Below, piece by piece: positions 19,264 to 20,318 of a DNA stretch of 23,210 bases. This stretch comes from a virus (lineage: Duplodnaviria > Heunggongvirae > Uroviricota > Caudoviricetes), in the IMG/VR virus record IMGVR_UViG_2861069343_000008; one strand, 5' to 3'. Both the position numbers and the translations under genes were made by a program. Under the pieces are notes generated by a model. The model was not told the DNA's origin. It did no database searches and saw only the letters and a program-made list of their open reading frames with translations. Numbering within the stretch: the stretch's first letter is position 1; every line of letters begins with the position of its first letter.

Positions 19264-19415
19264 GCGAAATTAACTAGAAGCCAAAGATAAAATCATCGCT
19301 GAGCAGGAGAAAATCGCTAACGGAGAAAAGACAGTAAGTCAGTATATGAAAACCGCATGATATCATCAGATAAAAATCGGTCGTAAAGCGAAATATTAAT
19401 ACCAGAACAAACGAG

Positions 19416-19439
19416 TCGAGGTAAATTATATTACCTCGA
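19416..19439 (-). terminator. Stem-loop, possible terminator for the minus-strand membrane-protein gene
   Basis: Perfect 9-bp inverted repeat TCGAGGTAA / TTACCTCGA with a 6-nt loop, 35 bp downstream of the 19474 stop. Only a weak U-tract follows on the minus strand. Confidence 0.3.
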
Positions 19440-19473
19440 TAAATTAACTAAAACTTGCCCGCTATATACTATA

Positions 19474-20076
19474 TCATTCAGTATCATCACGCGCGGTCTG
19501 TGCATATGTCACTACCGCACCTAATATATTAATTTTCTTTTCAACATAGATAATATTATCGTACTCATAATTGCCATACGGATAGCAAATGCGAATATTC
19601 TCATGTAGATCGGGGTCATCCACCTCAGCTCCAGAACAACTTTTTGAACTACCGGAAGTATACCGATACGGTGCAACATAAGACGATGTCTCTCCAGGCA
19701 AAAAATAAGTTAGTGTCGTAAGGGGTATAATCAGAAAAAATCCAGCAAATATGCACATCCCTGCATAAACCTTAAGGTATGCTGACAGACTCTTCCAGCC
19801 GCTTTGTTTTACTATCCCCTTCTTAACCCAAAACAGAGATAACAGAAAAGCTATTCCCATGCTAAACAGAATGTAATAGTGGGATATACTCTGATTAAGA
19901 AACGTGACCCTGTAGATATCTGCCCGCCACCAGAAGAAAAGGAAAATAAAGATCAGCCCTGAAACTGTCATGCAAATCAAATAAGGATACGAATCTTTTT
20001 TCATGTTTAGCGCCCATAAAATTTTTCCTGACCCGGACAAATTTACCATCCATTTTTTGCGCAGAAAATAGCTCAT
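19474..20076 (-). CDS. Integral membrane protein of unknown function (moron; about 3-4 TM helices plus a ~75-aa C-terminal soluble domain)
   Basis: 200-aa ORF antisense to the phage early-left operon, in a markedly AT-rich segment that replaces the lambda ea22/ea8.5 area. Hydrophobic helices (LICMTVSGLIFIFLFFWW, YYILFSMGIAFLLSLFWV, VYAGMCIFAGFFLIIPLTTLTYFL). Start ambiguous among three in-frame Met codons, none with a good Shine-Dalgarno. Confidence 0.5.
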   Translation of the reverse strand: MSYFLRKKWMVNLSGSGKILWALNMKKDSYPYLICMTVSGLIFIFLFFWWRADIYRVTFLNQSISHYYILFSMGIAFLLSLFWVKKGIVKQSGWKSLSAYLKVYAGMCIFAGFFLIIPLTTLTYFLPGETSSYVAPYRYTSGSSKSCSGAEVDDPDLHENIRICYPYGNYEYDNIIYVEKKINILGAVVTYAQTARDDTE

Positions 20077-20318
20077 TACTTACTGCACAATAATACACAA
20101 AATTGCGTAAATTTTTTGCATGGATTTTAGCTCTTTCAGCCGACATTTAAGGGGTAAATAGCATTTCCTAAAAGCAACTGCACCAACCCAACAGAATGGG
20201 CTACCGCTTACGTTGAGAGCAAAAAAGTGTATAGCAGCAATGAACAGCATCCTCGCACTGACGAGGATTTCTTTTATCTGAACTCGCTACGGCGGGTTTT
20301 GTTTTATGGAGATGATAA

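Follow-up and report, generated by a model that had tools for sequence, protein, structure and literature searches.

What is a gene for a small membrane protein doing on the opposite strand of a lambdoid early-left operon, in DNA much richer in A+T than its neighbors, and what might its product do? The question is raised by IMG/VR virus record IMGVR_UViG_2861069343_000008, a 23,210-nucleotide stretch of Caudoviricetes DNA (hereafter the window) that represents the int-proximal portion of a lambdoid prophage whose early-left operon lies on the plus strand. The original prediction, made from the letters alone, placed a minus-strand gene for a multi-pass membrane protein of 200 amino acids (aa) in the segment 19270-20200 and took it for a moron, which in the sense of Hendrix and colleagues is an independent transcription unit added to a phage genome. 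Our comparisons make it very likely that this is a real, independently transcribed moron encoding a membrane protein. It is a good candidate, not a proven one, for a phage-exclusion gene, and is best filed as a functionally unassigned prophage moron encoding a small envelope protein.

The predicted open reading frame (ORF) exists opposite the early-left operon, at 19474..20076 on the minus strand (200 aa). The gene and its signals are as follows.

19474..20004, minus strand: conserved coding sequence of 176 aa plus stop, with three transmembrane (TM) helices and a C-terminal five-stranded beta-barrel of about 75 aa carrying two invariant cysteines.
20005..20076, minus strand: 24-codon N-terminal extension of the annotated 200-aa frame, shut or absent in 11 of 11 other loci and holding a promoter-like block.
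20040..20068, minus strand: candidate sigma-70 promoter, predicted, its position deduced from conservation across loci.
19416..19439, minus strand: perfect 9-bp hairpin, 35 nt past the stop codon, terminator-like in a terminator scan and present in both minimum-free-energy and centroid folds.

The comparisons favor a shorter product than the 200 aa first proposed. The conserved start is Met25 (ATG 20004-20002), which gives 176 aa. In each of the 11 other loci examined, the frame ahead of this ATG runs into a stop within 1-18 codons and contains no other possible start, and the divergent homologs all begin at the Met25 equivalent with MKK.SYP.L. A protein of 176 aa rather than 200 aa is what this pattern makes most likely, and 20005..20076 is probably promoter and 5' leader, not coding sequence. 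The window has no good Shine-Dalgarno sequence at either candidate start (GGGCG only), as had been pointed out from the sequence; strong ones stand ahead of the same ATG in distant homologs (AAGGAGG in Klebsiella, AAGGA in Enterobacter mori).

A word-indexed protein search returned 74 relatives, the near-identical ones of 200 aa and the divergent ones (42-78% identity, from E. coli, Salmonella, Enterobacter, Klebsiella and Cedecea) of 169-180 aa. Invariant across the family are the motifs CSGA.V..P.L, I.ICYP.G.Y and EK..N.LG.VV. When a profile was searched exhaustively against 1.84 billion representatives, it recovered only 61 cluster representatives, nearly all of them 165-190 aa long; by this measure the family is narrow and compact. 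In comparison with the E. coli P2-type allele, the ratio of nonsynonymous to synonymous substitution rates (dN/dS) is 0.14 in the TM part and 0.09 in the C-terminal part, values that indicate strong purifying selection on the protein.

The signals for expression are conserved as well. When the region upstream of the ATG is aligned for the window, the P2-type loci of E. coli, Salmonella and Enterobacter, and the chromosomal locus of Cedecea, the elements TTTTCt, about 17 nt of spacer, and TGnTAAnTT recur at a constant distance, about 36 nt from the ATG. In the window they take the form of a -35-like TTTTCT (20068-20063), a 17-nt spacer and an extended -10, TGgTAAATT (TGGTAAATT, 20048-20040); transcription is predicted to begin near 20033, which would leave a leader of about 29 nt. 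This extended -10 is the probable promoter of the membrane gene; a generic promoter scan did not flag 20040-20068, owing to the poor -35. The promoter had been expected in 20077-20200, and the best candidate lies instead within the first 24 annotated codons. At the other end, the perfect 9-bp stem-loop proposed as the gene's own terminator is present, and in L015, an E. coli P2-type locus with a 78%-identical allele, a hairpin occupies the corresponding position and differs by a compensatory A-U to G-C change, a wobble pair and a mismatch. The stem-loop of the window has a weak T-tail (CTCGTTTGTT), is only moderately convincing as a terminator, and is likely to serve as a weak intrinsic terminator of the moron transcript.

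Hydropathy analysis finds three hydrophobic segments followed by a soluble C-terminal domain. The loop between TM2 and TM3 carries four K/R and no D/E, and the C-terminal 73 residues hold 12 D/E against 6 K/R. By the positive-inside rule, the N-terminus and the TM2-TM3 loop are predicted to be cytoplasmic and the C-terminal domain periplasmic. An AlphaFold model built on a 22-sequence alignment (pLDDT 84.5) has helices at 5-33, 38-61 and 69-101 and then five strands; the C-terminal domain modeled alone reaches pLDDT 91.3 and is, in the model, an acidic OB-like five-stranded beta-barrel of about 75 aa. Hydropathy, charge and model thus agree on three TM helices and a soluble C-terminal domain, in keeping with the multi-pass protein and C-terminal soluble domain first described. 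Two cysteines that are invariant or nearly so, C123 and C140 in the 176-aa numbering, flank the second and third strands and probably form a periplasmic disulfide. The C-terminal domain is the best conserved part of the protein, at 66-85% identity versus 43-74% for the TM part.

The family had not been recognized at first sight, fairly so, as no curated family matches. Searches of Pfam, NCBIfam and PADLOC with the protein gave no meaningful match, nor did Pfam with 22 family members; a sequence profile search of the PDB had no match, a structure search with the full-length model returned nothing informative, and Foldseek against BFVD gave nothing at E <= 0.001. The only PHROG to match was phrog_1416, of unknown function, over residues 113-200. 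That profile is 90 aa long, and databases most often list the P2-type allele as a 112-aa "protein", which is found in more than 1000 contigs. We considered whether these short forms are a truncated or frameshifted allele and ruled this out, since the DNA has an intact 176-aa ORF; gene callers begin at an internal GTG after a GAGGGGGG run (L024 4810-5339; P0131, P0133, P0138; phrog_1416). The family is, on this reading of the DNA, systematically under-annotated. Separately, a 3074-aa repeat protein (P0120) has ten repeats that match positions 121-158 of the C-terminal profile (E 6e-9 overall) and share a two-cysteine stretch, PACDGVVCTLPITNWD, whether by homology or by compositional chance. We dropped it as an informative relative, the common part being only the C..C-containing stretch.

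The moron reading is supported by several properties of the locus, among them the opposite strand and a 3' hairpin kept in a distant copy. The gene is present in some relatives and absent between the same flanks in others: lambda has ea22 and ea8.5 there, and the window and phages 434, mEp332 and 2B8 have a 973-bp block instead. Lambda homology runs through window 18300-19275 (lambda 31356-30380, 97%) and again through 20249-20800 (lambda 29355-28804, 96.7%), and therefore the 973 bp at 19276-20248 stand in place of lambda 30379-29356, which comprises ea8.5 and ea22 from codon 6 onward. The statement that the gene replaces the ea22/ea8.5 region was literally right, with alignment edges at 19275 and 20249; strictly, the block is a replacement and not a pure insertion. 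Its base composition also deviates as claimed, with a G+C content of 38% over 19264-20248 (35-41% in 300-nt segments) versus 45% for the whole window and 45-52% in neighboring genes, the surroundings overall spanning 0.45-0.53. Finally, the same cassette, including its non-coding flanks, occurs in an unrelated phage type, the P2-like prophages, with 76% DNA identity over 761 nt.

The lambdoid copies are close to one another. The gene is found at 99.4-100% protein identity in phages 434 (CPT_434_36), mEp332 and 2B8, always in the same slot between the TraR-like gene and tL4, and cassette DNA identity is 98.8-99.9% across the three (mEp332 99.9%, 434 98.8%). These records call the product a "putative membrane protein" or "hypothetical", and they disagree on the start, which gives 188 aa in 434 but 200 aa in mEp332; the comparative data favor 176 aa. 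No function is assigned in the three records or in the 434 genome announcement (PMC9119081); the gene sequence is already in the databases, catalogued and uncharacterized. The gene is present at >=95% identity in 914 (about 17%) of 5426 complete E. coli genomes, and a further 67 have it at 60-90%. The O157:H7 copy sits in a decayed cryptic prophage beside ybhC, with a frameshifted integrase.

The divergent homologs bear on function. Five of them (P0039, P0043, P0048, P0051 and P0054, at 78, 71, 59, 58 and 56% identity) come from P2-like prophages, where every one occupies the tin/old locus that separates gpQ (portal) from gpA (replication). Rousset et al. (2022) defined this old/tin locus as a P2 anti-phage hotspot; it holds old, tin and several validated defense systems, and also carries non-defense cargo such as partition systems and cytolethal distending toxin (PMC9122126). 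Their Table S5B lists, without name or function, System #4, a single protein with no Pfam match, "3 TM" and 470 occurrences (PMC9122126). Aligned over 168 aa, the System #4 protein and the window protein share 52% identity (E 5e-57). Fellow cargo of the P2-type homologs includes a YafO toxin, an AAA_16 protein with a partner, or StbA/StbB. Because no neighbor is conserved with the gene, the membrane protein evidently acts alone, as far as its genomic contexts can tell. Beside it in Klebsiella michiganensis P2-like prophages (L020-L022, 2281-5623), the hotspot also holds a 790-aa AAA_16 protein and a 279-aa partner, a pair that looks like an uncharacterized two-gene defense candidate in its own right.

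How did the lambdoid copy come to its present place? The features at the edges of the replaced block bear on this.

19260..19274, plus strand: first five ea22 codons, VSEIN (lambda ea22 begins VSEINSQALRE; the 97% lambda match ends at 19275).
19278..19361, plus strand: start-less Ead/Ea22-like remnant of 28 codons, translated by hand, frame EAKDKIIAEQEKIANGEKTVSQYMKTA followed by a stop (19317-19274 matches L015 6713-6756 at 77%).
20075..20141, minus strand: vestige of cos-proximal P2/P88-like backbone, the homology beginning at window 20141 = L015 5864.
20249..20268, plus strand: tL4-type intrinsic terminator of the early-left operon, found by the terminator scan and listed as t-L4 in phage 434 record M60848.
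20080..20250, minus strand: ORF56, which the 434 and mEp332 records list as another "putative membrane protein"; a doubtful gene.

The membrane protein is unrelated to lambda Ea22 or Ea8.5, and the plus strand keeps just the five ea22 codons and the 28-codon remnant, which runs toward the membrane gene from the opposite strand. On the right, the block is bounded by the restart of lambda homology at 20249.

The 761-nt match to L015 covers window 20141-19384, which extends 137 nt ahead of the ORF and 90 nt past it, and resumes at 19317-19274. Its upstream end holds GGCTGAAAGAGCTAAAATCCATGCAAAAAATTTACGCAATTTTGTGTATTATTGTGCAG, a diverged copy (about 76% identity) of GGCCGGAAGGGCAAAAAGTCGTTCAAAAAAATTGTGCAAATTTGTGCACTATCGTGCAG, and L015 5471-5910 is 92-98% conserved in P88-like phages that do not carry the gene. 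The motif AAGGGCAAAAAGTCGTTCAAAAAAATTGTGCAAATTTGTGCAC stands before many different cargos in viral contigs, and the pattern matches once in the window against 0.04 expected. The vestige contains 10-bp direct repeats, TTGTGTA (20100-20094) and TTGTGCA (20090-20084), with a degenerate third copy at 20111-20104. The element lies at or beside cos, because the deposited genome end of LR595891 (phage P88_4B11) falls inside it. At the opposite edge, the remnant frame EAKDKIIAEQEKIA... (19278-19361) corresponds to a PF13935 Ead_Ea22 gene that is convergent with the membrane gene in P2 loci, and the Ead_Ea22-like gene of those loci also begins MSEIN. The lambdoid phage probably acquired the cassette from the gpQ-gpA, cos-proximal hotspot of a P2/P88-like phage, and the position of the vestige suggests capture from the very end of a P2-like genome. 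Of the two crossovers, one would have taken place within the ea22-like gene common to both phages and one close to the P2-like cos flank.

This origin bears on a published annotation. Phage 434 record OL657226 marks 27236-27249, equivalent to window 20087-20100, as a "transcription factor CII binding site", and the site matches a TTGY-N6-TTGY pattern. We ruled out the TTGTGCA repeats as a regulator or CII operator, since they belong to P2/P88 backbone beside cos and stand before many different cargos; the "CII site" is part of a P2-derived scar and is unlikely to be a lambdoid regulatory site. Tandem arrays of three to six or more TTGTGCA-type repeats of 10-11 bp also occur in unrelated viral contigs (L042, L044, L102, L116 and others), which suggests an iteron-like or terminase-binding motif class that extends beyond P2-like phages.

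What, then, does the protein do? Superinfection exclusion at the envelope, by a block to entry, is in our judgment the most likely function, one that we hold tentatively and well short of an even call; an anti-phage role of any kind seems nearly, if not quite, as probable as its absence. Superinfection exclusion and abortive infection had been named as candidate functions from the sequence, which was reasonable and is strengthened by the five homologs in the tin/old hotspot and by System #4. A protective role would be favored by the fact that unrelated temperate phages carry the gene in two accessory slots, of which the old/tin exclusion locus is one. The modeled layout, in which the only soluble part is periplasmic and there is no cytoplasmic domain, fits interference with DNA entry better than intracellular sensing. 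We envision that the gene would be expressed from a repressed prophage, while leftward pL transcription is off; transcription would be possible at that stage given a probable promoter of its own and the opposite orientation. The lysogen would then be protected at the envelope, with the periplasmic barrel binding a conserved component of the host that serves in entry or, alternatively, a tape-measure or ejection protein of the phage. Stated in full, the proposal is of a new family of single-gene, envelope-level anti-phage proteins, in which a disulfide-bonded periplasmic OB-like barrel on a three-TM anchor blocks genome entry and which has spread by horizontal transfer between P2-like cos-proximal hotspots and lambdoid exo-xis regions. 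In this complete form it is possible, and we regard it as rather doubtful.

A number of observations weigh against an exclusion function. Hotspot location alone is weak evidence, because the P2 hotspot also bears non-defense cargo. The System #4 sequence is not in the table of systems that Rousset et al. evaluated for defense (PMC9122126), the 2026 follow-up on these hotspots assayed P4 unknowns only, and the literature searched contained no experiment on the membrane-protein family. The defense models of PADLOC-DB 2.0.0 gave 0 families at E <= 1, and no annotated exclusion PHROG matched. The most distant homologs, in Cedecea, Enterobacter mori and Klebsiella, are solitary chromosomal genes amid housekeeping genes, with no phage genes within 6 kb, and they fit a general envelope role as well as a phage-directed one. 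A strongly conserved periplasmic domain is unlike an arms-race surface facing fast-evolving phage proteins, and its conservation suggests a conserved ligand, possibly of the host. In addition, topology and disulfide are predicted, as are the promoter, the start of transcription and the function of the terminator.

The same solitary homologs and the same contrast between a well-conserved periplasmic domain and a more variable TM part speak for the strongest of the other explanations, that the protein serves a lysogenic-conversion function at the envelope unrelated to phage, with the barrel binding a conserved bacterial ligand. Variants of this idea include an orphan immunity protein against a membrane-acting bacteriocin, contact-dependent inhibition or type VI secretion toxin, and roles in envelope stress or host colonization. 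By analogy, size and three-TM layout resemble those of immunity proteins to pore-forming colicins, and virulence and maintenance cargo is also found in the P2 hotspot. There is no linked cognate toxin gene in the 20-odd loci examined, however, and temperate phages carry the gene repeatedly in two different accessory slots, tin/old being one. We regard an envelope function of this kind as possible and somewhat unlikely.

Abortive infection by a single protein has less to recommend it. Such a protein would sense, for example, an envelope perturbation linked to injection and collapse the membrane potential in the manner of RexB, so that the cell dies before phage release. TM proteins in known defense systems are commonly suicide effectors (PMC9122126), the hotspot location would suit this function, and it was one of the options named at the outset. 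Yet there is neither a partner sensor gene nor a cytoplasmic domain, the sole soluble domain being predicted periplasmic; the three TM helices have no evident pore-forming or oligomerization feature; and PADLOC has no match. Stable carriage in about 17% of E. coli genomes, including the O157:H7 cryptic prophage, argues against marked toxicity. On balance we consider abortive infection unlikely.

Less likely still is a role in the phage's own life cycle, either by antisense damping of the early-left operon on its xis/int side or as a membrane protein acting in lytic growth or lysogenization. The transcript would indeed be wholly antisense to the pL operon from the TraR-like gene to tL4, and TTGT-N6-TTGT suits the loose CII pattern used in OL657226. 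But selection acts on the protein and not on the RNA alone, the protein is also conserved where there is neither a pL operon nor CII, in P2-type loci and on chromosomes, the "CII site" is the inherited P2/P88 scar found before many unrelated cargos, and lambda manages without the gene. These points make such a role quite improbable. An unexpressed chance frame in AT-rich DNA, the artifact that the original prediction had allowed for, draws on the weak Shine-Dalgarno at both candidate starts and the silence of the generic promoter scan, but the comparative data in effect rule it out: length, TM layout and invariant motifs are kept in homologs as distant as 42% identity, dN/dS is about 0.1, the AlphaFold models are confident, and strong Shine-Dalgarno sequences precede the same ATG in distant relatives.

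The surroundings of the gene are otherwise those of a lambdoid prophage. On the plus strand, exo (17628-18308) is followed by small lambda-type ORFs, a TraR-like gene (19042-19263), the tL4-type terminator, a lambdap35-like ORF55, xis and int. The prophage is probably at att-lambda, because the long ORF after int is positioned like ybhC, which follows int in the matching O157:H7 locus. The TraR/DksA-type C4 zinc-finger gene directly upstream in the early-left operon matches TIGR02419 at E 5.7e-15, just under the cut-off; its lambda homolog, Orf73, has been reported to reprogram host transcription (PMC9239242). We also considered ORF56 as a co-transcribed partner of the membrane gene and ruled it out on non-conservation and poor start signals. 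PGAP does not call it in O157:H7, no P2-type or chromosomal locus has a counterpart, and it has no family match; its ATG lies within the tL4 hairpin, with no spacing to GAGG. It is probably not a gene. An Rfam search of 18900-20700 gave as its sole match a chance plant miRNA.

If the protein is an exclusion or defense factor, this would explain an unassigned gene of the classical phage 434, the fourth most frequent cargo of the P2 defense hotspot, and a gene that about 17% of sequenced E. coli, O157:H7 among them, carry. Such a factor would also represent a compact single-protein mechanism in the periplasm or inner membrane, a layer with few understood determinants, and would bear on host range in phage therapy. 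If it has no anti-phage effect, the case becomes a caution against reading function from hotspot location. The P2-like cos scar in a lambdoid operon is, for its part, a concrete case of hotspot cargo moving between unrelated temperate-phage families.

Several known systems invite comparison. Membrane-anchored OB-like barrels (short NfeD, YhhM/DUF2500 and DUF1093) are among the closest; for NfeD (PF01957), none of 22 members tested has a Pfam match and no SPFH gene is present in any locus examined. A second comparison is with HK97 gp15, reportedly described by Cumby et al. in 2012 as having one TM helix and a bulk that is periplasmic, as being encoded among tail genes, and as blocking DNA entry. 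The two proteins are alike in being small inner-membrane products of lambdoid morons with expression signals of their own, which for the window gene are predicted, and differ in TM count (three versus one) and in location (the early-left slot versus the tail genes). Gp15 and similar morons have been reviewed in "The moron comes of age" (PMC3594210).

P22 SieA, a prophage-expressed inner-membrane protein of 162-164 aa with three predicted TM helices, blocks DNA injection on its own; in P22-like phages its gene is flanked by genes 16 and 9, and the conserved C-terminal part of the protein is predicted to be cytoplasmic (PMC10883804). Our protein resembles it in size class, TM count, probable action as a single protein and even an uncertain start codon, and by analogy SieA would provide a functional precedent. 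The two differ in that no sequence relationship is detectable, the SieA motif FxRYPxEAxxFNK is not in the window protein, the genomic context is another, and the conserved C-terminal part here is a predicted periplasmic beta-barrel. Among known systems, the closest is System #4 of the P2 hotspot, which shares family, length, three TM helices and C-terminal motifs with the window protein. The P2-type alleles at 78% and 71% identity are nearer than the System #4 entry itself, and the window copy stands outside gpQ-gpA, in the lambdoid exo-xis region between the TraR-like gene and tL4/xis, where it keeps its 67-bp vestige of a P2-like cos flank.

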